From positions 640,001 through 704,000 of the forward strand of contig OZ240248.1 of NCBI GenBank assembly GCA_965198235.1: a stretch of DNA of 64,000 nt. The letters run 5' to 3'. The notes beneath the pieces were generated by a model. It saw only the letters and a list, made by a program, of their open reading frames with translations. It did no database searches and was not told the origin of the DNA. The first letter of the stretch is position 1, and every line of letters starts with the position of its first letter. The stretch is from Candidatus Poribacteria bacterium. GTDB taxonomy: Bacteria > Poribacteria > WGA-4E > WGA-3G. Positions 1-12,219 of the stretch are shown here, piece after piece. Position numbers and translations under genes: made by a program.

Positions 1-1
1 T

Positions 2-514
2 GACTGTTTTATCCACGCTGCCGGTGGGTTTTTCTCAACGGAACACGACATTACCAAGATGGACCCAGCGTATTGGGATGGGGCATTACAAAACAACTTG
101 CAAACGCTGTTCAACCCTGTGCGTCGGCTCGTGCCGGTTTTAGAAGCGCGTGGGGGTGGATGCCTTATTACTATTTCTGCGGGTGAACGGGTACGGCAAG
201 ATGCAAACAGTGCTTACGCCGTCGCGAAGGCAGGAATGGTCGCGGCAGCGAAAAACCTCGCGAAGGAATTGTATGATAAAAATATCCGCGTCCACGCGTT
301 GTCCCCGGGGATTATTTGGGATCCGTTGCCAGACGGAGAAATCGCCCCAGTAGCGACGCAACTGGAACGGCTTGGCAATCCAATTGATGTAGCTTATGCG
401 GCATTGTGGCTCTGCTCAGATGAGGCAGCGTGGGTTACAGGCTTGGAATTAACGATTGATGGTGGCGATTCACTGTTCATTGATTCGCCAATTCGCCGAG
501 AGTTTTTGGCGTAG
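2..514 (+). CDS. SDR family oxidoreductase (5'-truncated by window edge)
   Basis: Frame is open from position 2; YAVAK (YxxxK) catalytic motif; IRVHALSPG and WVTG..LTIDGG SDR C-terminal motifs. Confidence 0.9.
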   Translation, partial: DCFIHAAGGFFSTEHDITKMDPAYWDGALQNNLQTLFNPVRRLVPVLEARGGGCLITISAGERVRQDANSAYAVAKAGMVAAAKNLAKELYDKNIRVHALSPGIIWDPLPDGEIAPVATQLERLGNPIDVAYAALWLCSDEAAWVTGLELTIDGGDSLFIDSPIRREFLA

Positions 515-547
515 TAGGATTAATCCGAAAGGACCTTAACATGAACA

Positions 548-573
548 GGCGAGGCACAGAGACCTCGCCCTAC
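548..573 (-). repeat. GTAG-headed REP-like palindrome, possible terminator between convergent genes
   Basis: Minus strand reads GTAG-GGCGAGG-8 nt-CCTCGCC. Confidence 0.5.
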
Positions 574-589
574 AGCAAAATTCGTTGGA

Positions 590-1396
590 TTACCACTGCA
601 CCTGACAGAATTCTTCGTAATCGATTAACTCGTGGATGGTGGGATTTTCACCGCACATCGGGCAATCGTTATCTTGACGCAATTTCAGTCGCTTGAAATC
701 CATCGATAACGCGTCGAAAAGCAGAAGGCTCCCGATTAACGGATCGCCGATGTCCAGCAGGACTTTAATCGCTTCAACGGCTTGAATCGTTCCAATAATA
801 CCGGGCAACACGCCAAAAACGCCTGCCTCTTGACAGCTCGGTACCATTCCGGGTGGCGGCGGGTCGGGATAGATGCATCGATAACACGGTCCTTTGCCCG
901 GATAGAGGACAGAGACTCGTCCTTCAAACTGGAAGATGCTGCCATGCACAACCGGTTTTCCCAACATAACGGATGCGTCATTGAGTAAGTAACGCGTCGG
1001 TATGTTGTCGCACCCGTCTACAATCAGATCGTATTGTTCCAGAATCTGGAAGGCGTTTTCTGAGGTAATCCGTTCGTTATAGGGAATCACCTTGACATCA
1101 GGGTTCATCTCTGTGATAGTGGCTTCTGCGGATTTCGTCTTCGGGACACCGATGTCGCTGGTGCCGTGCAAAATTTGGCGTTGCAAATTACTGAGATCTA
1201 CCACGTCGTCGTCGATGATGCCGAGTGTGCCGACCCCTGCCGCGGCGAGGTAAACGCCGACTGGAGAGCCGAGTCCCCCTGCCCCGATGAGTAGCACTTT
1301 CGATTCAAGCAACCGCGTCTGACCCATCCCACCGACCTCTTTAAGAATGATATGCCGGCTGTAGCGTTCAATCTGTTCGTTGCTGAAGTTAAACAT
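590..1396 (-). CDS. moeB: MoeB/ThiF/HesA family adenylyltransferase (no rhodanese domain)
   Basis: Starts MFNFSNEQIERYSRH; GAGGLG, SNLQRQ, CYRC...CxxC Zn motifs and PSC active-site Cys; ATG lies 1 nt after the upstream stop. Confidence 0.92.
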   Translation of the reverse strand: MFNFSNEQIERYSRHIILKEVGGMGQTRLLESKVLLIGAGGLGSPVGVYLAAAGVGTLGIIDDDVVDLSNLQRQILHGTSDIGVPKTKSAEATITEMNPDVKVIPYNERITSENAFQILEQYDLIVDGCDNIPTRYLLNDASVMLGKPVVHGSIFQFEGRVSVLYPGKGPCYRCIYPDPPPPGMVPSCQEAGVFGVLPGIIGTIQAVEAIKVLLDIGDPLIGSLLLFDALSMDFKRLKLRQDNDCPMCGENPTIHELIDYEEFCQVQW

Positions 1397-1397
1397 C

Positions 1398-1976
1398 TTA
1401 GGCTCCCAAATTGGAGAGGAGTTCTGAAATTGGTTTATCCGAATTCGCTGAGATTCGCAAAGCGAACCGTTCGCGTGCGTCTTCGGAGGTGCGTTCCACC
1501 GCGAAATCGTCACCGCCGTACATCTGTTGTAGGACAGGTGTGAGTTCTGCCTGCACGGATGCCGCTGTTTCCGATGTATTCGGTACGACATTCCGATTGT
1601 TTATCATAAACAGGAGGTCTGCGCCGTTGAAATGCACTGCGTTTTCTAACTCTGCGGACGCTTCAAGTTGTTCGCATTTGGAAAGCACCTCTGTGAGTGC
1701 TTGGCGAATCTTGTCAGCATTGTCGCCTTCGACTGCATGCTTCCGGTTGTAGAGGAAACCGTGCTCATAGTAAGCGTTGTCAATGCTATAATTGGCTTGC
1801 TTCAAAATCAACAGTACACCCGGTCCTGCATCGACGTGCGAATAGTCGGCGTAGTTCAAATAATCTTCTGAATCAGCTTCCTCCATCCAACGGTTGAAGA
1901 CCTTGATGAAGTTGGTATAGTTGATTTTGCTATCTTCGGTTGCGAAAACCTTAATGTTAATTTGTTGTAGATCCAT
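1398..1976 (-). CDS. conserved hypothetical protein coupled to moeB
   Basis: 192-aa ORF with ADYSHVDAGPGVLL motif; stop abuts the moeB start (TAA-G-ATG). Confidence 0.8.
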   Translation of the reverse strand: MDLQQINIKVFATEDSKINYTNFIKVFNRWMEEADSEDYLNYADYSHVDAGPGVLLILKQANYSIDNAYYEHGFLYNRKHAVEGDNADKIRQALTEVLSKCEQLEASAELENAVHFNGADLLFMINNRNVVPNTSETAASVQAELTPVLQQMYGGDDFAVERTSEDARERFALRISANSDKPISELLSNLGA

Positions 1977-2118
1977 TCTGCTAAAAAATTTCCTATAAAC
2001 ATAACGCCCTGATGGGCTTTTCTTGTGAGAGCAGGCTTCACCCGCGATATTTTAGTCCCATCGTTTTAGAATTACCAGCACCCTATTCCTCCTGGATTCA
2101 TCACAATCTGCTGCTTTT

Positions 2119-2147
2119 ATTATACCGCAATTTGGTGGGAAAGTCAA
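2119..2147 (-). promoter_or_regulatory. sigma70-like promoter for the hypothetical-moeB pair
   Basis: TTGACT-17 bp-TATAAT. Confidence 0.7.
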
Positions 2148-2209
2148 TTTCTATTTTTTCCCAACTGCATGGCTCCATATACAATCTGAAAACCAGTTTC
2201 AATGCTTGT

Positions 2210-2467
2210 TTAATAGACGTTCCTACGATGTCCGACCCGGTGAACAATGATCTCCCGGGTAAGCCTATCAAAAGTATAGAGGATTCGATAATGCCGGGCG
2301 ACCGTTAAACTGAATTTATCGCTATGCTCGCCTTTTAATCTCTTATGTGGTTGGCTGTCGCAGGTTTCGCGTAACCGCTCCAGTTTGGTACGAACCCGGG
2401 CGCGGAGGGTCGCATCTAAACGCCGCAGATCCGCTCTGGCACTTGAGTCTATTTCCAATGTATACAC
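2210..2467 (-). CDS. RelE/ParE family toxin
   Basis: 85 aa, basic; YRILY..D...I.V.RVGHRRNVY RelE signature. Confidence 0.85.
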   Translation of the reverse strand: MYTLEIDSSARADLRRLDATLRARVRTKLERLRETCDSQPHKRLKGEHSDKFSLTVARHYRILYTFDRLTREIIVHRVGHRRNVY

Positions 2468-2469
2468 GA

Positions 2470-3171
2470 TTACTCTTCTTCAAATTCTGCAAAAACTTCT
2501 TCGAGAGAATAGGTCTTACCGCCAGCTTTCACGTCAGCAACACTTCGCCCCAGCTCTTCGGCAACCTCCGGGCGTATTTCGAGTCCTTCATCTGGGTCGT
2601 ATTCATAGGCTTCCAAGAACTGCTCCAATTCCAGATGACAGACAAAAAATTCATAAAATGCAGATTGCAACTGCAAATGATTTGCTACCGATGTGGGTTC
2701 CTTCATTAACTTAACCACCCGTTCTCGGGCGGCAAACAGTTCGGAATTCACGAGTGTCTCGGTGAACGTGTGGAATTTATCATCAGATAGTGCCGTCACC
2801 TTTATCGTCGGCACTGGCATATCAGGGATTCCGCCCAACCGCCGTGCCATGCGTCCCGCGTCTGAGGTCTTCCGTTCACCTTCGACTGCTGCCACGCGCT
2901 GTTTCAGATGCGCAAACTCTTGGCGTGCTTCACACGCTGCGAGCACACACGCCTCCTGCATATCTAAGTCAAATGCCAGATCATAGGAATAGGCTTCAAA
3001 CATTGCCCGGAACCCTTCTGTCAGTGTTTCTCGGTCAACACTCTGTGCAAGCAACATGACAAGTTCATCGCGATCAGCAAATAGCACCTCGTTCACGATC
3101 AGGCGGAGCCACTCTCGAAACTGCGCTGGTGTCATATCTGTGAGGGATAATTTTGTTTTCTTTACGTGCAT
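2470..3171 (-). CDS. putative antitoxin (long, internally duplicated)
   Basis: Directly upstream of RelE; acidic C-terminus DPDEGLEIRPEV...SLEEV resembles small RelE-linked antitoxins. Confidence 0.65.
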   Translation of the reverse strand: MHVKKTKLSLTDMTPAQFREWLRLIVNEVLFADRDELVMLLAQSVDRETLTEGFRAMFEAYSYDLAFDLDMQEACVLAACEARQEFAHLKQRVAAVEGERKTSDAGRMARRLGGIPDMPVPTIKVTALSDDKFHTFTETLVNSELFAARERVVKLMKEPTSVANHLQLQSAFYEFFVCHLELEQFLEAYEYDPDEGLEIRPEVAEELGRSVADVKAGGKTYSLEEVFAEFEEE

Positions 3172-3185
3172 TGAGATATCCTTGT

Positions 3186-3360
3186 TAGCAAACTCCTACG
3201 GGTAGGTGATAGCACCCACCGCCTAAAGGCGGGGGCTTCGGTTTCATAGCGACTGCGGTTTTCTCAAAGAGTCCACCGTCTGACTGTCGCTCCACCAGCG
3301 AGCTATTATCCTGTATCAGAACAGGTTTATCGTGTATCAAGACACGGCTACCCCAGCTCG
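3186..3360 (-). ncRNA. putative TnpB omegaRNA (reRNA) scaffold plus ~20-nt flanking guide
   Basis: Spans the tnpB 3' end and the right-end hairpin; AGCGAC/GTCGCT pairing; boundaries approximate. Confidence 0.6.
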
Positions 3361-4449
3361 CAAAATGTTTATCGCAGCATTTATATCTCTATCGTGAGAC
3401 GTGCTGCAGGAAGGACACGTCCAATATCTGTCCTCAAGTGTGAGGGTCTCATTTTTAGAGTCGCAGCCGTGGCAAACCTTTGTTGTCGGTTGCCATTGTC
3501 CTGCTTTCGCAAGCGTTTTTCCATATTTGGTACACATCCATTCAAGGATAAGTGAGAATTCACCAAAAGCGAGGTCAGAGACTTTACGACCCCACAGACG
3601 TTTCATACCTTCAAGGTTGAGTGTTTCAATCGCAAGCGTATCATACTTTCGCACAAGACGCAGAGCCACCTTGAAAAACCAGTCTCGCCTTCTGTTAGCA
3701 ATCTTTTTATGGAGACGTGCCAAGTGTCGTTTCGCACGATACCAAGCACCAGACCCCTTCTGTTTACGAGAGAGGGCTTTATGGGCGGATCGTATTGCAT
3801 TCAAACTTTGTTTGAAAAACTGGGGTGACTCTATTTTCATACCGTCTGAAAGTGTTAGAAAGGTTTTCATACCGAAGTCTGCCCCTGCCACACTACCGGT
3901 CAGTGGGAGTGCCTCGGTCGGTGCTGAATCCTCACAGACGAGATATAAATAGTAGTCGCCTACGGTATCACGTTTGATTGTTACTGTCTTTATCGTTCCC
4001 GTCCATTCACGGTGTTTCCAAAAGGTAAACGATTTCTTCAAACATTTAATATCGATACGATTGCCTTCTATCTCATACCCCGATTGTGTAAATGTCAATG
4101 AGTTATATCTATGCTGCGGTTTTATACGAGGCTTCCCCACTTTTCGGACAGTTCTGCCTTTGCCTCGGTCTTCAATGTTATCAAAGAAACGTTGATATCC
4201 TAAGTCAATACGACGGGCAACTTGCTGAATTACTTGACTCGGTAGTTGATTCCAGTGCGGCTTCGTTCTCCGTTTCAACTTCGTGATATGTCGGCATATC
4301 CGAGCGAAAGACGCATACTTGCCATAAATCCGATAGTAACGTCGCTGCAACTCAAGCAAGTGGACATGCACACCGTGCAAATCGTCTATCAGATTGCCAA
4401 TCTGTATGATATTAGATTGCTGATACAACTCATATTTTTCAGTTTTCAT
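3337..4449 (-). CDS. tnpB: RNA-guided endonuclease TnpB
   Basis: RuvC I (GADFGMK), II (AIETLN) and III (DRDINAA) acidic residues intact; CHGC/CPSC Zn ribbon; likely start MKTEKY at 4449. Confidence 0.95.
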   Translation of the reverse strand: MKTEKYELYQQSNIIQIGNLIDDLHGVHVHLLELQRRYYRIYGKYASFARICRHITKLKRRTKPHWNQLPSQVIQQVARRIDLGYQRFFDNIEDRGKGRTVRKVGKPRIKPQHRYNSLTFTQSGYEIEGNRIDIKCLKKSFTFWKHREWTGTIKTVTIKRDTVGDYYLYLVCEDSAPTEALPLTGSVAGADFGMKTFLTLSDGMKIESPQFFKQSLNAIRSAHKALSRKQKGSGAWYRAKRHLARLHKKIANRRRDWFFKVALRLVRKYDTLAIETLNLEGMKRLWGRKVSDLAFGEFSLILEWMCTKYGKTLAKAGQWQPTTKVCHGCDSKNETLTLEDRYWTCPSCSTSHDRDINAAINILRAGVAVS

Positions 4450-4460
4450 GGTTTTTTCAC

Positions 4461-4543
4461 GTATCACGCCTTTAACCCCGTTCAAGTGGGTAGGCAGACA
4501 CGCCACCAAGCGGTGACGCTTGAACTGTCTGCCAACGTGATAC
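4461..4543 (-). ncRNA. structured pseudoknotted 5' leader RNA of tnpB
   Basis: Four helices plus a perfect 7-bp bulge-loop pseudoknot (GUUCAAG/CUUGAAC). Confidence 0.6.
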
Positions 4544-4547
4544 AATC

Positions 4548-4576
4548 ATTATACCACAATCAAACGGATTTGTCAA
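4548..4576 (-). promoter_or_regulatory. perfect sigma70 promoter inside the IS, driving tnpB
   Basis: TTGACA-17 bp-TATAAT with extended -10 TG. Confidence 0.85.
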
Positions 4577-4729
4577 GGTTTTTTGCGGTCTTATATCCCA
4601 AAGCTGAAGCATTGGGCTTTACGACCGAAGTCCCGTAAAAAGGCGATTGGTCGCCTACACCCATTTTAGGTGAAAACGACAATCGCCAATAGTGTAAAGT
4701 TCGGCTTCGATGAACCGCAATCTTGGACT

Positions 4730-7174
4730 TTATTCGCCCTTCCGAACGGTAAGACGGTAGTGCTGTCCGACCTTCTTGGTGTCAACAACCTCATGTCCAT
4801 CGTTGGTGAGGCTCTTCGGTACGTTCTCAATCGGTTCGCCATCGTCAATGGTGACTTCGAGAAGTTGACCGAGTTGCATCGTTTCCAGCCGAATCTTTGC
4901 CTGGACATAGTTGAACGGGCAAGCGACACCCTTGAGGTCGAGGCTATCCACGATTTCCTCAACGGGTTTCTTCTTCTTGACAACCCTCGGCTTCCGTGCC
5001 GGTCGCGAGCGACGTGCTTTGAGACGGCTCTCTTCCTCTTCCTCCTGTTTGATGCGCATGCGTCCATAGACGTTATGCGATTCTTCAACGAAGAGTGTAG
5101 CTTCTTCAACCCGACGGTGTGCCAATTCGTGATCAAACGTAGAAGCATCCTCCTCTGTTACTTTGAAGATGTGCGCACCGTAACCGGGGAAGAAGTTACC
5201 GGGTTCAAAGAAATGGGTGCGGAATTCGTTGACGGTGATCGCGTCGTCAATATATTGCAAACCTACCGTTGTCTGAAGTCCGTCTGCGGCTCTGATCATT
5301 GCATCAAAAGCCAACTCCGCGGAATCCTGATATTCACCCCTTTCCAAGTTCAAGCCAGATTCATAGATAAGCCGATCTGCTTCTTCCAACTTCATAGAGA
5401 CGAGTGCTACTACCTCTCCTGCACATTCACCGACACCCGTCTTGAGTTGGTAATCTTTCGTGTCGCCGGTGTCCACATAGAATTCTGGTGCTTCCTCATA
5501 AGATGGAATCTTATCGTACTTGGACAAGATCTGCTTGATCTCCGCCTTACCGAGCCGTGCGACATAATCAGTGAAGGATTCTTCCTCATTTCGTTCCGCC
5601 GTGTACTTACCGGTTAATTCCTCAATGAACGTCGGAATATATTTGCCGTGAATTTTTCCAGTGGCAAGTCCGTAAGAATTGGCGTTTTCCACCATGTGTC
5701 CACCGAGTAGCACCTGATAATAAGGAGCAATATGCTCACCCATCCGGCGCGAGGAACCGAAGAAACCAATATTCGCGACATGATGCTGTCCACATGAGTT
5801 GGGGCATCCGCTAATCTTAATCCGAAAGTCTTTGATTTCATTCTGCACACCGGTTTCAATGAAATGGTTTCGCAGGTGCGCTGCCAGACCACGTGAAGAA
5901 GAAATACCGAGTTTGCAGGAGTCAGTACCAGGGCAAGCGGTAATATCAACCATAGATTCTGCCCCCGGGTCACCGAGACCAACCGCTTTCAATTCGCGAT
6001 AGAGTGCTGGCAGATCTGTCATCGTTACCCAGCGGAGAACGATGTTCTGCTCGACTGTGGCGCGGATGGTGTCTTTAACGTATTTCCGGGAAATGTCTGC
6101 CAAAGCACGCGTCTGATCTGCGGTAATATCCCCAAGAGGTAGCGTAATCGTCACAAAAGCGTAGCCGGGCTGACTCTGTAACCGCACATTAGATTGATAC
6201 CACTCTTCAAACGCTTCGGGTTTCGTGGTGCCGTTGAGCTGCGTCGGTGCCTTGAGAGGACTTTCGTTGTAAGCGTCGAGATTGTCCAGATAGTCCGTCC
6301 ATACGGGGTCATGCCGTAGCGTTTTTCGATCTTCAAGGACCTGTCTACGGAATTCCTCAATGCCATATTTCGCTATGACAAACTTTAAACGAGCCTTATT
6401 CCGATTTCTGCGTTCACCTAAACGGGTGAAGACTCTGCAAATTGATTGTGAAATCGGCAGGAGTTCTTCTGCGGCGACAAAATCATCAAACACTTTCGCC
6501 TGATGTGGTACTGCGCCGAGTCCGCCACCGACATAAAGTTTAAAACCGCGTTTGACTTCCCCGTCCACCTCTTTAACAGCGGCAACCGCACCGATGTCGT
6601 GCATATTTGCTAAACCGCACGCATGCTCTTCACATCCAGAAAATGCGATTTTGAACTTACGACCAAAGTCCTGCGCGTCTGGGTGCCCTAAAAGAAATGC
6701 AGACAACGCCTTTGAATAAGGTGTTACATCAAACGTTTCATCTTGGCACACACCGCTGAGAGGGCATGCTGTGACGTTTCGCACGACATTCCCGCACGCT
6801 TCTTTTGTCGTAATGTCAACACTGGCGAGGCGGCGCATCAACTCAGGGGTGTTGTTGATGTCTACGTAGTGGTATTGTACATCTTGACGTGTTGTAATGT
6901 GAATGATGTTGTCCGAGAATTCTTCAGCTACATCTGCTAACATTTCAAGTTGTACTGCTGTGAGTCCGCCAAATGGGATTTTAACACGGATCATCTGCGA
7001 TCTATCATCGCGCTGCCCGTAAACCCCGTGACGGAGTCTAAATTCGGTAAACAGAGTCTCTTCAACTTGGCCAGCTTGGACCCGACCAAGTTGTATCTCA
7101 TAAATTTCAATTTCGCGGGCAACATCAGCAGGGATAGCCGATGTATCATAGGGATCCGCGTATTCAATAGCCAT
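4730..7174 (-). CDS. siroheme sulfite/nitrite reductase fused to a HEPN-like helical domain and a C-terminal TusA/SirA sulfur-carrier domain
   Basis: TTRQDVQ, CGNVVRN, CPGTDSC...SGCPNSCGQH siroheme/[4Fe-4S] motifs; C-terminal LDLKGVACPFNYV...DDGEP TusA motif. Confidence 0.9.
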   Translation of the reverse strand: MAIEYADPYDTSAIPADVAREIEIYEIQLGRVQAGQVEETLFTEFRLRHGVYGQRDDRSQMIRVKIPFGGLTAVQLEMLADVAEEFSDNIIHITTRQDVQYHYVDINNTPELMRRLASVDITTKEACGNVVRNVTACPLSGVCQDETFDVTPYSKALSAFLLGHPDAQDFGRKFKIAFSGCEEHACGLANMHDIGAVAAVKEVDGEVKRGFKLYVGGGLGAVPHQAKVFDDFVAAEELLPISQSICRVFTRLGERRNRNKARLKFVIAKYGIEEFRRQVLEDRKTLRHDPVWTDYLDNLDAYNESPLKAPTQLNGTTKPEAFEEWYQSNVRLQSQPGYAFVTITLPLGDITADQTRALADISRKYVKDTIRATVEQNIVLRWVTMTDLPALYRELKAVGLGDPGAESMVDITACPGTDSCKLGISSSRGLAAHLRNHFIETGVQNEIKDFRIKISGCPNSCGQHHVANIGFFGSSRRMGEHIAPYYQVLLGGHMVENANSYGLATGKIHGKYIPTFIEELTGKYTAERNEEESFTDYVARLGKAEIKQILSKYDKIPSYEEAPEFYVDTGDTKDYQLKTGVGECAGEVVALVSMKLEEADRLIYESGLNLERGEYQDSAELAFDAMIRAADGLQTTVGLQYIDDAITVNEFRTHFFEPGNFFPGYGAHIFKVTEEDASTFDHELAHRRVEEATLFVEESHNVYGRMRIKQEEEEESRLKARRSRPARKPRVVKKKKPVEEIVDSLDLKGVACPFNYVQAKIRLETMQLGQLLEVTIDDGEPIENVPKSLTNDGHEVVDTKKVGQHYRLTVRKGE

Positions 7175-7351
7175 TCTGTCCTCCCTTAATTAACCTCGGA
7201 TTCGTAGTGGGCGTTGATTGATGTCCGATTGCTTTCTATTTACCTTAGCCGAAGTTTGTGTGCTGATTTGCATGGTATCCAGCCATTAGAAATCCTTTAA
7301 ATAGTATAGTATACTATAAATTGGAATAAAAATCAAGGATAATCTTCTGTT

Positions 7352-8446
7352 TTAAGTTTCCGGTGCATCTCCCCAATCCGGAATTGGGAGTAATTCGCCA
7401 TCCCGTAAAGCAGATTCATGTGCGACAAATCCGGGTGCGCAGTACCGAACTGCTTCCCAAACGTTGACGCGTGGCAATCGTTGGCGATTGACGGAATCCA
7501 CGAATTCGTGTACGAGATAGGCGTGTGAACCCCCATGTCCGCCGAGATCCGCTGCGAGTGCTTCCGGAAGATCTTCGTGAGACATTGAAGGTTCAACGAT
7601 TTCCCTCCCACGTTTGTCTGCCCAAACACTCCCTGCCAGACTCTGCTCGTAACTACCCTCTGTTCCGTAAATACCACTGATACGTTCAGATCCGGGGTGT
7701 CCAACCCGTCGGAACTCGCAGATTTGCATTGTTGCACCGTTGCTCATTGTGAAAAGCCCAACTTCGTTGGAGAATGGATTCTTGTGAATGGTATCCTTCC
7801 GAAACCAATCGTCGTTTGGATAGATGTACCCTTGTGCAGAGACCGACGTTGCGTGCGCCTTCATCACGGAGATAGGAAAGCAGGTTGAATGCGTCGGATA
7901 ATACATCGGAATATTACCACTCTTGTCGCGCCCCCAGAGCGCACCCCACCGATTTTTCGCGACATCGTAGAGTCCGTGACTCATGTCGTGAAAGTATTCA
8001 GCGCGGCAGTGAACAAACTCCCCGAACGCCTCTTCTGCTGCTTTCTGACGACAGAAGACGGTCTCCGGACGGAAATAACTCGTTTCACCATTCATGTAAA
8101 TCATTCCGGTTCGTTCAACTGTTCTGATAAGGGCTTCGCATTCATCCAGCGATGCCGTGGCAGGGACAGCGGTATAGACGTGTTTACCTGCTTCCATCGC
8201 TTGAATTGCCTGCGGTGCGTGCATCCAATGCTGGGTGATGATCACAAGGGCATCTAAATCCGATTTGCAGATGTCGTCAAGACTTGAGTAGGTCTCAGAA
8301 ACCCCAAACTGCTTTGCCCATTTTGTCAACCGGTCTTCGCGCAAATCACAGAGAGCAAGCCGATGTACATCTGGATGCGACTTATACGATTGGATAAACG
8401 CCGGTCCGAACATTCCCAAACCTACCATCCCGACACTGATACTCAT
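7352..8446 (-). CDS. Gfo/Idh/MocA family oxidoreductase
   Basis: VGMVGLG Rossmann motif; AGKHV; Y.H and GGHGGSH motifs. Confidence 0.9.
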   Translation of the reverse strand: MSISVGMVGLGMFGPAFIQSYKSHPDVHRLALCDLREDRLTKWAKQFGVSETYSSLDDICKSDLDALVIITQHWMHAPQAIQAMEAGKHVYTAVPATASLDECEALIRTVERTGMIYMNGETSYFRPETVFCRQKAAEEAFGEFVHCRAEYFHDMSHGLYDVAKNRWGALWGRDKSGNIPMYYPTHSTCFPISVMKAHATSVSAQGYIYPNDDWFRKDTIHKNPFSNEVGLFTMSNGATMQICEFRRVGHPGSERISGIYGTEGSYEQSLAGSVWADKRGREIVEPSMSHEDLPEALAADLGGHGGSHAYLVHEFVDSVNRQRLPRVNVWEAVRYCAPGFVAHESALRDGELLPIPDWGDAPET

Positions 8447-8512
8447 CTGTCACTCCTCCTTCACGCTTACAAGGCGTGCCTGCGGGGATTGAGGTGTAAA
8501 TTCTGTTATGAA

Positions 8513-8590
8513 ACGATAGCATGTATAGGAATTGCTGTCAAGTATATTTTTGAAGATATTTGTTGACAAAACCGCGAACAGCCTTATAAT
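8513..8590. promoter_or_regulatory. divergent sigma70-like promoter pair
   Basis: Minus strand TTGACA-17-TATCGT (8541-8513); plus strand TTGACA-16-TATAAT (8563-8590). Confidence 0.6.
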
Positions 8591-8694
8591 AAATGCAAAG
8601 TCACTGTAGGGTGTTACGAGCAAGCGCAAATTTAAACTGCAAGTTTTCCCTATAGGCGAAATCAAACTTCACCTTTGGAAGGAATTCACAACAA

Positions 8695-9774
8695 ATGGCA
8701 TTAAAAGTTGGCGTTGTCGGCATGAGTGGGATTGGCAATAATCATGCGAACTGTCACGCGAATGACGACTTAGCGGAACTGGTTGCGGTGTGCGATATCG
8801 TAAAAGAACGCGCAGACAGCGCAGCAGAACGTCTCGGTGTAAAGGCATACTACAGCGTAGCTGATATGATTGATGGCGAACCCGACTTGGACATCGTTGA
8901 TGTCGGCACCGGTGGAAATGAGAACGGGAGTTGGCACTATGAACCGACGATGGAGGCGTTGGAAAAGGGCAAACATGTACTCGTTGAGAAACCGATTTCA
9001 AACGATATCGGACAGGCTCGGGAGATGGTAGCGAAAGCGACGGAAGAGGACCTGTATCTCGGTTGTAATCTGAATCACTATTTTACGCCGCCTGCGGAGC
9101 AAGCGAAGCAATACATTGACGATGGACACATCGGGGAGATGGTTTACTGTCTTCACAAAATGGGGTTTGCTGGTGGTGAATTCAACTATAGTTACTCAAA
9201 AGCTCCTCGGTCAGATGGATTCCCCTATTTTCATGTGAAAGCCTTCTTGTCCCACCCCTTCAGTGTGATGCGTCATTTCTGTGGCGATGTAACACACGTT
9301 CAAGCCTTTATGGAGCGCCCTCATTTTAGGCGCGACACCGGGGATCTGATGGTCTCCATTAACGGCATCCATCTCCGGTTTGAGAACGGGTGTATCGGTT
9401 ACTTGCTCAGCCAGCGTGGTGATGCTACATTCGGTCTTGGGGGTTGGTGGAGTGTTGAGCTCGCAGGCACACGTGGTACCTTCTGCATTGAAAACTGCAT
9501 CGAGAAGGTGACCTATTGGCCCTCCCCTGGAGCCCCTGATTTCTCTGGTGAGCCTATTGTCACGGAGTCCGGTATCAGCGACTTCGGTCAGACCTTCCCG
9601 CTGAGAATTCATGCGTTCTTAGAAGACATTACGAACGGCGTTCCCAGAGAGCAGTTACGTGCCTCCGGCAGAGATGCACTCGCGGCACTTGAGTATACTT
9701 GGGCGGCGATGGAGTCTTATGAGCAGGGCGGTATCTTGGTGCGTCCACATCCGCTTCCGTCATTAAAGGGATAA
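8695..9774 (+). CDS. Gfo/Idh/MocA family oxidoreductase
   Basis: KVGVVGMSGIG; GKHVLVEKP motif; AGGA RBS. Confidence 0.92.
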   Translation: MALKVGVVGMSGIGNNHANCHANDDLAELVAVCDIVKERADSAAERLGVKAYYSVADMIDGEPDLDIVDVGTGGNENGSWHYEPTMEALEKGKHVLVEKPISNDIGQAREMVAKATEEDLYLGCNLNHYFTPPAEQAKQYIDDGHIGEMVYCLHKMGFAGGEFNYSYSKAPRSDGFPYFHVKAFLSHPFSVMRHFCGDVTHVQAFMERPHFRRDTGDLMVSINGIHLRFENGCIGYLLSQRGDATFGLGGWWSVELAGTRGTFCIENCIEKVTYWPSPGAPDFSGEPIVTESGISDFGQTFPLRIHAFLEDITNGVPREQLRASGRDALAALEYTWAAMESYEQGGILVRPHPLPSLKG

Positions 9775-9827
9775 TTGTCGTAAAGTGGGTGGTGCAATAT
9801 CTGCCCCTACAGAAGGAGAAACCACAT

Positions 9828-10625
9828 TTGAAATTAGGAGCAAATTCGGTACTGTTCGGCGGTTACGATATGGAAACCGCCTTCAAACACATCGCGATGG
9901 CTGGTTATGATGGCATTGAACTTTCAGCGATCGACGGGATGAGTCAGCATCTCGTGCTCGCGAACTGGCAGGAGCTTGCTGCCGACATCAAACGGTTCGC
10001 GAAAGAATACGAACTCGACCTATTGGCAATGGAACAACCCTCGCGTGATCCAGAACGAATGGAGCTTGCCTTCCAAGCCGCAGCTGAGATAGGCATCCCC
10101 GTTATTAACTGCGGTCCTGGCGGTGCATCGGACGATGAGTCTGCGTGGCCCGAGGTGATTGATTCATTGGGCAGTCTCTCCGAACGTGCGGAACACTACG
10201 GCGTGACGCTCTGTGTCAAGGCACATGTGGGCGCGAGCATCTATAACACTCCGACGACACTTCGCATCATGGAAGCGATTTCGTCCCCGGCGTTTGGAAT
10301 CGATATGGATCCGTCTCATATTCATCGTGCAGATGAGAATCCTGTGGAGGCGATTGCTGCGGTGATCTCGCGCGTGAAACATGTACATATTCGAGACTGC
10401 AAAGGTACACAACGCGGTCCCGGCGATCCTGAATTGCAGGCAAACGGACGCGGTGACATCGACCTCGTCGGCTACATCCGGGTTTTACATGAAAACGGTT
10501 ATATCGGTCCGTTGAACCTTGAGGTCATCGGTGCGAAAGAGTATAGTTTGGCGCAGTGTTGCACGATCGCGGCAGAATCGCGCGGACACATGCAGGCGTG
10601 TTTGCAAGCATGTGGTGCACGTTGA
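9828..10625 (+). CDS. sugar phosphate isomerase/epimerase (AP2Ec/xylose isomerase-like TIM barrel)
   Basis: GYDGIEL, DPSH, HVHIRD and GxGDID..LE motifs; TTG start after AAGGAG. Confidence 0.85.
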   Translation: MKLGANSVLFGGYDMETAFKHIAMAGYDGIELSAIDGMSQHLVLANWQELAADIKRFAKEYELDLLAMEQPSRDPERMELAFQAAAEIGIPVINCGPGGASDDESAWPEVIDSLGSLSERAEHYGVTLCVKAHVGASIYNTPTTLRIMEAISSPAFGIDMDPSHIHRADENPVEAIAAVISRVKHVHIRDCKGTQRGPGDPELQANGRGDIDLVGYIRVLHENGYIGPLNLEVIGAKEYSLAQCCTIAAESRGHMQACLQACGAR

Positions 10626-10636
10626 TTCCTGAATAC

Positions 10637-10664
10637 AGTAGGCGGGACATATAGCCTGCCTACT
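10637..10664. terminator. hairpin (GTAG REP-like) between convergent genes
   Basis: AGTAGGCGG...CCTGCCTACT inverted repeat. Confidence 0.5.
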
Positions 10665-10802
10665 TGTGAAATTTTTAAATACATAAGCATGTCTTTTCGA
10701 AGATACCTTACGCCATTTAAAGTAGAAGGACTGAGGAGAAATGCGATGAAAGATAGGAAGCTATAGTGCATTCGGAGCCGCAATGAGAACCAAATTGTCT
10801 TG

Positions 10803-11597
10803 CTACTGAAGTTGGATTTCCGATAACGGAATCCCGCTGTTAAACATCTGTATTGGCGGAATTTCCTCCTCCACTTCTGTCAATCCGCATAGCCACTGCC
10901 ACGTAAGTTCGCCTCTTCGTCGGTCGCGGTAGGATTCTACCTCGGTGACGTAAGGGTGCCTACCGGCATGCTGATAGGGTGGAAGCTCATCGGAATCCCG
11001 CACCCAATCCCGTTTGGGCATTGCGGTACGGAAGTAGGAAAACTTAATCATCCCACGTCTATCGTCATTGAGTTTTGGACCAGCCTTATGCCAGATGCCG
11101 TAGCGTGTCATTGCGACGGTGCCTGCTGGAACGGTGAGCGAGAGTTGCCCGAGAATATCGCCGTAGTGAGCGATAGCCTCGCGATCCACAAGCCGATGGT
11201 GCGATCCGGGCAATATCATCGTCGGTCCATCCTCAATCTTCACCTCTTTCGGGTAGTAGTAGCACTGAAGATGCGTGATACCGTATCCGTATTCCGTGAT
11301 TCCATCGGAGTGCCATGTCTGACCGAGGTGCGCAGCTTCAAAGAGATGATGGTGTGCACTTGTCGGGACGAGGAAATTCTCGCCTAATAGTGAACAGACT
11401 ACACCAGCGACTTCCGGGTGTAATAGGACATTCCGGCGAAACTTATCTGTAAGAACGAAATCGCTGAGATGTCCGCTCTCCATCGATTCACATTCTCGGT
11501 TAAAGTCGGCATCGATGATGCTTTCTAATGTGATATAACCGTTGTGGATAAATTGCATGACTTGGTGGTCATTTAACGTAGGTTTAACGTCAATCAT
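10803..11597 (-). CDS. phytanoyl-CoA dioxygenase (PhyH) family Fe/2OG oxygenase
   Basis: WHSD, GPT..LPGSH and IWH facial-triad motifs. Confidence 0.88.
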   Translation of the reverse strand: MIDVKPTLNDHQVMQFIHNGYITLESIIDADFNRECESMESGHLSDFVLTDKFRRNVLLHPEVAGVVCSLLGENFLVPTSAHHHLFEAAHLGQTWHSDGITEYGYGITHLQCYYYPKEVKIEDGPTMILPGSHHRLVDREAIAHYGDILGQLSLTVPAGTVAMTRYGIWHKAGPKLNDDRRGMIKFSYFRTAMPKRDWVRDSDELPPYQHAGRHPYVTEVESYRDRRRGELTWQWLCGLTEVEEEIPPIQMFNSGIPLSEIQLQ

Positions 11598-11608
11598 TGC
11601 GTTTTCCT

Positions 11609-11968
11609 TTACACGGATTTTTCTAAAATGAACTCAAAAGCGAGATAGGCGTTGTCGACATCCGAAAAATTGTAGAGTTCAGGACGCGGAAATTGGACGA
11701 TCCACCACCCATCGCGAACTGCGTCAAGCACTGATGTATAAGGGACATCTTGCGAGGGAAGGATCGGTTCCTCCGGTGCGGTTGCGTCGTACAATGCCCA
11801 TCCGCCAATCGGTGAGCGCAAATTCGTTGATTTAGAATAGAGATAAAGGATCAGTTGCTTCTTGGAATTCAGAACGGCAGTTACACCGCGCAGGTCAGTC
11901 TCGGTCAACTTGCCTGCCTTAAGTTTTTCGATACAATTGTCGAGCCATTCTTTTATCGTTGGTTTCAC
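11609..11968 (-). CDS. hypothetical protein co-transcribed with PhyH
   Basis: GTG start after GGGAG; PY.SVLDA..DGW.I.QFP motif; ends 11 nt before the PhyH start. Confidence 0.7.
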   Translation of the reverse strand: MKPTIKEWLDNCIEKLKAGKLTETDLRGVTAVLNSKKQLILYLYSKSTNLRSPIGGWALYDATAPEEPILPSQDVPYTSVLDAVRDGWWIVQFPRPELYNFSDVDNAYLAFEFILEKSV

Positions 11969-12219
11969 ACGAATTTCTCCCTTCATTACGGTTATTATCA
12001 TTGTAGCACAAAAGTGAAAAATATGTTATAATAGTTGGAAAATTGATGACTGCAGGCTTTAGTAATGGATTTGAGCAATTTTATAAGCCAGGAACGAATG
12101 GCGAAATTACCCTGCAACAAGTGTTCCACGTTCCTGATTCTTGTTGGACCTTTCAAGAGAGGTCCGATGCTCTAAAAATCGTCCAGTGTTTAATAAAATA
12201 TAAGTGGAGAGGCTGAACT

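Follow-up and report, generated by a model that had tools for sequence, protein, structure and literature searches.

TnpB is the Cas12 ancestor and a compact genome-editing nuclease; to our knowledge, the natural control of its expression has been little studied outside the case of IS200 tnpA. In a 64,000-nt stretch of a Candidatus Poribacteria genome (contig OZ240248.1, positions 640,001–704,000; here called the window), a tnpB gene is preceded by a leader that can be drawn as a compact pseudoknotted RNA. This raises two questions, namely whether the leader is a genuine structured RNA and what it would do for the nuclease gene behind it.

The gene lies in a tnpB-only element of the IS200/IS605 family, 1,429 bp long (window 4634–3206, minus strand), whose limits were set where paralogous copies cease to resemble one another. 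From left to right end, the element and its flank contain the following features.

4635–4639, minus strand: TTTAC target or TAM-like flank, abutting the left end (first element base 4634)
4597–4616, minus strand: imperfect left-end hairpin read from the sequence, stem CCCAATGC / GCTTTGGG, loop TTCA
4548–4576, minus strand: sigma-70-type promoter, with the −35 box at 4576–4571, a 17-nt spacer and a TG-extended −10 box at 4553–4548
4461–4543, minus strand: leader structure, 83 nt, between the promoter and the tnpB ATG and followed by an 11-nt spacer
3337–4449, minus strand: tnpB, 370 aa, ATG at 4449–4447
3206–3336, minus strand: 3' non-coding region, with the presumed omega-RNA scaffold, the right-end hairpin (3235–3215) and the right end ...CTATCAC (last base 3206)

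Copies of the element's own subfamily differ upstream of ...TTAC and are alike from GGGACTTCGG on, and the 403-aa subfamily has TTATC in place of TTTAC at its left flank. At the right end, paralogous copies part ways immediately after TATCAC. The hairpin found there is of the same type as the left-end hairpin, and such imperfect end hairpins are typical of IS200/IS605 elements. Several copies carry a terminator-like hairpin with a T-run upstream of the promoter. The 370-aa protein contains the Pfam domains OrfB_IS605 and Cas12f1-like_TNB and matches the solved TnpB chains 8bf8, 8ex9 and 8h1j (E = 1.7e-52). Its ADFG, IETL and DRD motifs, which we take to be the RuvC residues, align with the corresponding blocks of the best-matching solved chain.

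Within the leader, four helices and a pseudoknot can be read from the sequence, followed by an additional segment that resembles one strand of P1.

4543–4536 with 4468–4461, minus strand: P1, 8 bp
4536–4543, minus strand: P1 5' strand, at or within a few nucleotides of the predicted transcript 5' end; the proposed switching strand
4461–4468, minus strand: P1 3' strand, proximal copy, as paired in the alignment
4533–4526 with 4500–4493, minus strand: P2, 8 bp
4501–4518, minus strand: P3 hairpin (4518–4512 with 4507–4501), 7 bp including one U-G, with a tetraloop
4475–4491, minus strand: P4 hairpin (4491–4488 with 4478–4475), 4 bp, its 9-nt loop consisting of A, the pseudoknot 3' strand (4480–4486) and G
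4525–4519 with 4486–4480, minus strand: pseudoknot, 7 perfect bp
4519–4525, minus strand: 5' partner of the pseudoknot, formed by the 7-nt P2/P3 bulge
4469–4474, minus strand: junction J4/1, A-rich, UAAAGG in the window copy, its sequence not conserved across variants
4455–4461, minus strand: P1', distal copy of the P1 3' strand and alternative partner, weak in the window copy (4–6 bp)

The initial annotation had drawn P1 to P4 and the 7-bp pseudoknot in this way, and the sequence reads exactly so. RNAfold returns P1–P4 with a minimum free energy (MFE) of −39.9 kcal/mol (z = −3.9), and 0 of 200 shuffled sequences fold as well. The spacing to the gene is likewise as first described, with P1 ending at 4461, 11 nt before the ATG at 4449. 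The "SD-like AAGG" stretch pointed out in the same annotation proved to be peculiar to the window copy, since other copies differ at that junction.

Sequence comparisons were made at two levels, using an alignment of 24 copies from the same genome (A1), from which a covariance model (R1) was built, and an alignment of 95 distinct sequences from many genomes (A2). In A1, 95.8% of cells are paired compared with 28–41% when the partners are slid, 18 of 34 pairs change on both sides, and the covariation score was reached by 0 of 500 shuffles, a statistic that overstates independence because the leader sequences are kin. In A2, pairing amounts to 96.2% compared with 21–43% for slid partners, and 33 of 34 pairs change on both sides, which bears out the proposal that homologous leaders would covary. 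P2 is 100% paired in A1, and all of its pairs (8/8) change on both sides in A2. For P3, the A2 values are 99.2% paired and 7/7 covarying pairs, with U-G pairs frequent. The pseudoknot was left out of the search model, yet it covaries as well: it is 96.1% paired in A2, with 6/7 pairs changing on both sides and 4–5 pair types at the five central positions. U-G wobbles are frequent in A2, for example at column pair 40–75 (CG 45 and UG 41 of 94) and also at pair 37–79, which identifies the tnpB-sense strand as the folding strand, as had been proposed. By the measure of comparative sequence analysis, the leader is thus confirmed as a genuine structured RNA family under selection.

The family includes variants that keep the architecture and replace the sequence. 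Divergent variants (G070-type, L026-type, L144 and L161) retain P1, P2, the 7-nt bulge pseudoknot, P3 and P4 with helix sequences wholly different from those of the main family, and those that were parsed (L147, L144, L161 and L026) also retain the A located 5' of the pseudoknot strand. The G070-type, L026-type, L144 and L161 variants may each represent a class of their own. Within the main family, P2, P4 and the junctions hardly vary, but the junction nucleotides differ from variant to variant (UU / U / UAAAGA as opposed to G / CC / CAU, among other combinations), an argument against a single catalytic core or a single ligand pocket. In the manner of a variable stem in other structured RNAs, P3 tolerates extra sequence: its loop holds a 28-nt insert in two loci, L090 (481–614) and L043 (2387–2519). 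This insert is a GC-rich palindrome that is also found beside the right end of another element (flank of G000:C1:4636174), and it may be a REP-like repeat of these genomes.

The leader is present in many copies and in many genomes. In its own genome, BLASTN found 25 leader matches including the window copy, and R1 matched only leaders, 26 in number and diverged, each directly before a tnpB-like reading frame, and no 3' region. Model matches are present in 24 of 24 genomes of the same genus and in 0 of 16 genomes from three other families of the same order. A phylum-wide even draw gave matches in 94 of 151 Poribacteria genomes and in 5 of 22 genera (87/99 genomes of family f1, 6/26 of f3 and 0/25 of other families), with at least 1,164 leader matches across the 151 genomes searched, up to 25 candidates being scored in each genome. 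The Poribacteria that carry the leader are sponge symbionts. An exact pattern matched three metagenome contigs and no viral contig; since it fits the main family only, it is a poor guide to distribution.

TnpB-like sequence directly follows 86 of 97 model matches, a set in which about a quarter of the loci were chosen through TnpB similarity. Five of 10 matches without a following TnpB were inspected, among them a miniature element (L048) and a decayed one (L042). The miniature derivative, located in genome G003 downstream of 1501–1609, consists of the promoter, the leader and about 14 tnpB codons, to which the right-end hairpin and the TATCAC terminus are joined within about 125 nt of the leader end; it would still yield the leader and a guide-type RNA without TnpB. 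At another locus (L143:2850–2957), a leader copy without its own promoter directly follows the TATCAC right end of another element, an arrangement that suggests nested or tandem insertion beside the GTATC-like start of P1. A tRNA-like sequence lies within about 100 nt of the right end of one further copy (G000:C1, flank of 4603985).

Leader copies remain 81–84% identical in nucleotide sequence where the downstream TnpBs are 38–50% identical to the window TnpB, leader subtypes do not track TnpB subfamilies, and near-identical leaders precede TnpBs with different 3' RNA regions. Judged from these identities, the promoter and the leader appear to move together, as one transferable cassette, between TnpB families with only 38–50% identity.

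The promoter half of this cassette is well defined. In the window, TTGACA, a 17-nt spacer and a TG-preceded TATAAT give a match score of 12/12, and a score of at least 9/12 was obtained in 90 of 95 distinct upstream regions of leader copies. The end of the −10 hexamer lies 4–5 nt before P1 in 75 of those 90 regions, which places the first transcript bases inside P1. The claim that the leader begins at the predicted start of a perfect promoter therefore holds, and P1 starts at the predicted +1 in both the main family and the divergent variants. Upstream of two further leader copies (2106907 and 5120903), the −35 region is interrupted by a palindrome of about 45 nt and reads GACTT[...]TGAC (G000:C1, about 2106800–2106900 and 5121040–5121140); this insert looks like a small mobile hairpin element.

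A full tnpA–tnpB element (G000:C1:119800–120700, copy at C1:119829) has the same promoter type as the leader elements. Its tnpA has a short unstructured leader with a purine-rich stretch (AAAGG) before the ATG and runs into tnpB through an ATGA overlap, and the structured leader RNA is absent from this copy. This indicates that the leader belongs to tnpB-only derivatives, in which the tnpA overlap has been lost. The same element bears on the idea that the structure works in single-stranded DNA during transposition and not in RNA. IS200/IS605 elements do transpose as single-stranded DNA with the help of end hairpins, and DNA tolerates G-T wobbles. However, the recognised end hairpins lie elsewhere (4616–4597 and 3235–3215), the fold is locked to the promoter start and the start codon, and the full tnpA–tnpB copy is without the leader, so that we regard a role in DNA as highly improbable.

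Searches against known RNAs gave no assignment. Neither the main family nor the divergent variants could be credibly matched to any of the 4227 models of Rfam 15: window 1–12000 (E ≤ 5) and 12 diverse loci (E ≤ 1) gave 0 hits, and nothing credible came from 4420–4600 (E ≤ 10). The best scores are at chance level (DUF3800-IX, 14 bits, E 2.1; PreQ1, 10.8 bits, E 8.9), and the hammerhead, twister, twister-sister, hatchet, HDV-like, purine and preQ1 models gave no credible match to the leader. The suggestion that Rfam be searched for pistol and IS605-orfB motifs thus led to no already described family. In the openly accessible full texts searched, an RNA in the 5' leader of tnpB is not described. 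The leader fold and its alternative pairing are absent from Rfam 15 and from the literature searched, while structured mRNA leaders in IS200/IS605 elements as such are already known.

The initial annotation had considered a self-cleaving ribozyme and a loose resemblance to a circularly permuted pistol. In pistol, the pseudoknot joins the 5' hairpin loop to the 3' strand of the P2/P3 internal loop, which bears the cleavage site. Common to pistol and the leader are the pairing of a hairpin loop with one side of the internal loop that separates two helices, and an A-rich linker after the hairpin. The leader differs in that its pairing strand is the 5' and not the 3' strand, in its extra closing helix P1 and in the lack of a core conserved across variants. 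There is no unpaired base on the 3' side of the P2/P3 loop of the leader, and the P4 hairpin lies 3' of the P2–P3 arm. With the pseudoknot strand on the 5' side of the P2/P3 loop and no match to the pistol model, the resemblance is not supported. A ribozyme, whether pistol-like or of a new class, would suit a compact pseudoknotted junction in a mobile element, with its A-rich linker after the hairpin that carries the pseudoknot loop, and ribozymes occur at the 5' ends of other mobile elements. Against it, the search of Rfam ribozyme models stayed without a match even with E values up to 10, variants differ in the unpaired nucleotides of their junctions, and pistol has its pseudoknot strand on the other side of the internal loop. 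Moreover, the transcript is predicted to begin at P1, with nothing upstream to remove. Self-cleavage is accordingly a reading to which we give very little credence.

A second known RNA of such elements is the omega RNA. Rfam IS605-orfB-I is listed as RF03065 in a passage of PMC11701678. The leader and the TnpB omega RNA are both structured non-coding RNAs of the same kind of element, but the omega RNA occupies the 3' end (here 3206–3336) and continues into guide sequence of the flank, whereas the leader occupies the 5' end. The Rfam IS605-orfB models match neither the leader nor the 3206–3336 region.

By analogy, the closest known case is the leader of IS200 tnpA. As described in PMC5435999, tnpA is repressed by a leader stem-loop that hides the SD, and the left end of IS200 includes a terminator. 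Both leaders belong to the same superfamily and share an arrangement in which a left-end hairpin is followed by the element's own promoter and by a structured leader that limits, or here would limit, ribosome access. They differ in that the IS200 case concerns tnpA and a single stem-loop that includes the SD, whereas the leader described here precedes tnpB and combines a pseudoknotted three-way junction with two closing helices and no SD; this distinction is drawn from the published description of the IS200 stem-loop, no Rfam model having matched.

The second closing helix is the feature that links the fold to the start of the gene. The P1 3' strand is present twice in direct succession, as CGUGAUAC|GUGAAA in the window copy, CUUGAUAC|UUGAUAU in most leaders and GAAAGCCAU|AAAGCCAC in the G070-type. 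The P1 5' strand therefore has two mutually exclusive partners, the proximal copy (P1) and the distal copy (P1'). In A2, the P1' helix is 83.4% paired and 7 of its 8 pairs change on both sides, with pair 10–136 occurring as AU 42, CG 31, GC 6 and UA 5. For the longest complementary run on the distal side, the median length is 8 pairs compared with 4.5 in shuffles, and the run is individually significant (p < 0.05) in 59 of the 85 sequences evaluated out of 95. Relative to the AUG, the run mostly starts between −13 and −11 and stops between −7 and −4. P1 itself ends at −13, and it is P1' alone that reaches over −13 to −4 or the AUG. The second site of L026 and L145 stands apart from the first, is not identical to it and covers the AUG, and in the G070-type a third site lies over the AUG; in all three, the P1 sequences are unrelated and the second site still overlaps the AUG. 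Slippage instead of selection could in principle keep tandem copies alike, but the second sites of L026 and L145, which lie over the AUG at a distance from the first site and are not identical to it, speak against this.

No Shine–Dalgarno sequence was found before tnpB in these leaders, and several genes neighbouring leader elements have GGAGG-like motifs. Nearest-neighbour MFE calculations place the P1 5' strand in the proximal copy in 64 and in the distal copy in 20 of 84 evaluable sequences, and a single mismatch in the proximal copy marks the distal-preferring examples looked at. In some copies, the two forms lie near each other in energy. Most copies, however, are predicted to favour P1 over P1', with a median difference of +5.3 kcal/mol. 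In the window copy, the predicted preference for P1 is 9.7 kcal/mol and only 4–6 distal pairs can form. According to these energy models, the window copy may be locked in the P1 form, and a two-state switch is only a candidate. The early proposal of a translational switch is genuinely strengthened by the covarying second partner that the P1 5' strand has beside or over the start codon; in the window copy, P1' is weak.

Other origins and partners of the repeated segment were considered and set aside. The P1 5' strand (GUAUCAC) resembles the right end or omega-RNA terminus (CUAUCAC), but the right end stays TATCAC whatever the P1 variant, and G070-type elements have right ends that are unrelated. 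Pairing of the distal copy with an early coding segment was dismissed since that segment is without covariation, and an origin of the tandem copy by target-site duplication was rejected since the copy is absent from the left flank.

We propose that the leader acts in cis, capping the 5' end of the mRNA and controlling the initiation of tnpB translation by competition between two pairings, a model that we consider about equally likely to be right or wrong. Its directly observed components are the fold, its covariation and strand, its position relative to the promoter and the AUG, and the covarying alternative partner. The strong promoter that the element carries would start transcription at the first bases of P1, and the 5' end of the mRNA would be buried at once in a compact three-way junction formed by P1, the P2–P3 arm and the P4 hairpin, both arms being tied by the 7-bp bulge-to-loop pseudoknot. 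The proximal pairing, P1, would close the folded domain and leave the initiation region single-stranded. The distal pairing, P1', which extends over −13 to −4 or over the AUG, would occlude the SD-less ribosome landing site and so block initiation. The balance between P1 and P1' would then set the amount of TnpB translated. We infer that the pseudoknotted junction domain biases the choice between the two, and folding kinetics, Mg2+, a host factor or TnpB itself are candidates for shifting the balance. Pairing of the 5' end probably protects the mRNA too.

This last point could be the whole function. The fold might only bury the 5' end against decay or read-through effects, with the distal copy as a spare partner. 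Such a role agrees with the start of P1 at the predicted +1, which holds for the divergent variants as it does for the main family, and also with the fact that P1 and P1' both keep the 5' end paired. It leaves unexplained, however, why a second site should keep to the initiation region and, in divergent variants, extend over the AUG, and why a covarying 7-bp pseudoknot and a three-way junction are present where one hairpin would do; we judge it unlikely. To protect the mRNA, one plain hairpin at the 5' end would suffice, and the complexity of the fold is therefore a hint of some further role that the leader model leaves unexplained.

An alternative model is a sensor, in which the three-way junction and pseudoknot bind a small ligand, a host protein or the TnpB RNP, and occupancy picks P1 or P1'. 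Translational riboswitch platforms offer one strand a choice of two partners, one of them at the ribosome site, and in the "tuning fork" of purine riboswitches a closing P1 surrounds a junction from which two arms emerge that are tied by tertiary pairing. The leader has the closing P1, the two parallel arms tied by tertiary pairing and the strand with two partners, and P1/P1' shows the exclusive pairing of riboswitch type that links a folded domain to the ribosome site. The near-invariance of P2, P4 and the junctions within the main family also fits a binding site. The leader departs from riboswitches in that its switching strand is the 5' and not the 3' strand of P1. The variation of junction nucleotides between variants and the lack of an Rfam aptamer match also weigh against sensing, and the presence of near-identical leaders before TnpBs that are 38–50% identical argues against recognition by the cognate TnpB. 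We consider a sensor rather unlikely. Further known cases with similar features are fold-back inhibition in IS10, where a 5' segment pairs with the initiation region and so limits translation of the transposase, and the pseudoknot translational operators of T4 gene 32 and S15, where a pseudoknot near the start serves as a control point. The inhibitory strand of IS10 occurs in read-through transcripts alone, whereas the corresponding strand of the leader is the native 5' end.

RNA data were available from one sponge study, in which metatranscriptome contigs of all four runs (4/4) cover the element. Summed contig depth peaks at 3235–3301 on the minus strand with 2,400–3,600, compared with 8–78 over the tnpB coding region, and is 0–44 just outside the element in the four runs. 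This peak fits a very abundant omega RNA produced from many near-identical copies. Its location, with the leader lying 5' of the ORF, upholds the view that the leader is separate from the 3' guide (omega) RNA. In the leader bins, summed depth is 2–6 times that of the coding region in four runs, paralogous copies adding to the sum, and RNA starts, ends, cleavage sites and structure are not readable from contigs. Loose contig ends at 4457–4502 reflect paralogous copies that diverge in variable helices. One contig (run X4, contig 31) matches the upstream flank and promoter within window 4548–4887 and then continues from the −10 box with 81 nt unlike the window, and may come from a variant strain in which this site is occupied by an element with another body.

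The elevated leader depth in the four runs, to which paralogous copies contribute, would also be expected if the leader were released as a small RNA, by a cut between the two copies or before the AUG, and acted in trans. There is precedent in IS200, where the 5' UTR of tnpA is processed into regulatory small RNAs (PMC5435999). Against release, no terminator follows P1, and target complementarity was not found in the element's own 3' region, the sole region compared, where shuffled leaders did as well as the native one in RNAduplex for 18 of 19 copies (a crude comparison with 8 shuffles each). We consider a trans-acting small RNA very unlikely.

Taken together, the leader is a directly testable model for translational control of an RNA-guided nuclease, and its bulge-to-loop pseudoknot across a three-way junction provides a distinctive small fold for RNA structural work. 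The promoter and the leader form a compact natural expression cassette, and a single proximal-strand mismatch seems to adjust its strength in individual copies. Should the leader prove to be a sensor, no earlier case would be known in which the translation of an RNA-guided nuclease gene is under riboswitch-like or autogenous control; a cellular signal or the TnpB RNP would then move the 5' strand between a decoy copy and a copy at the start site.
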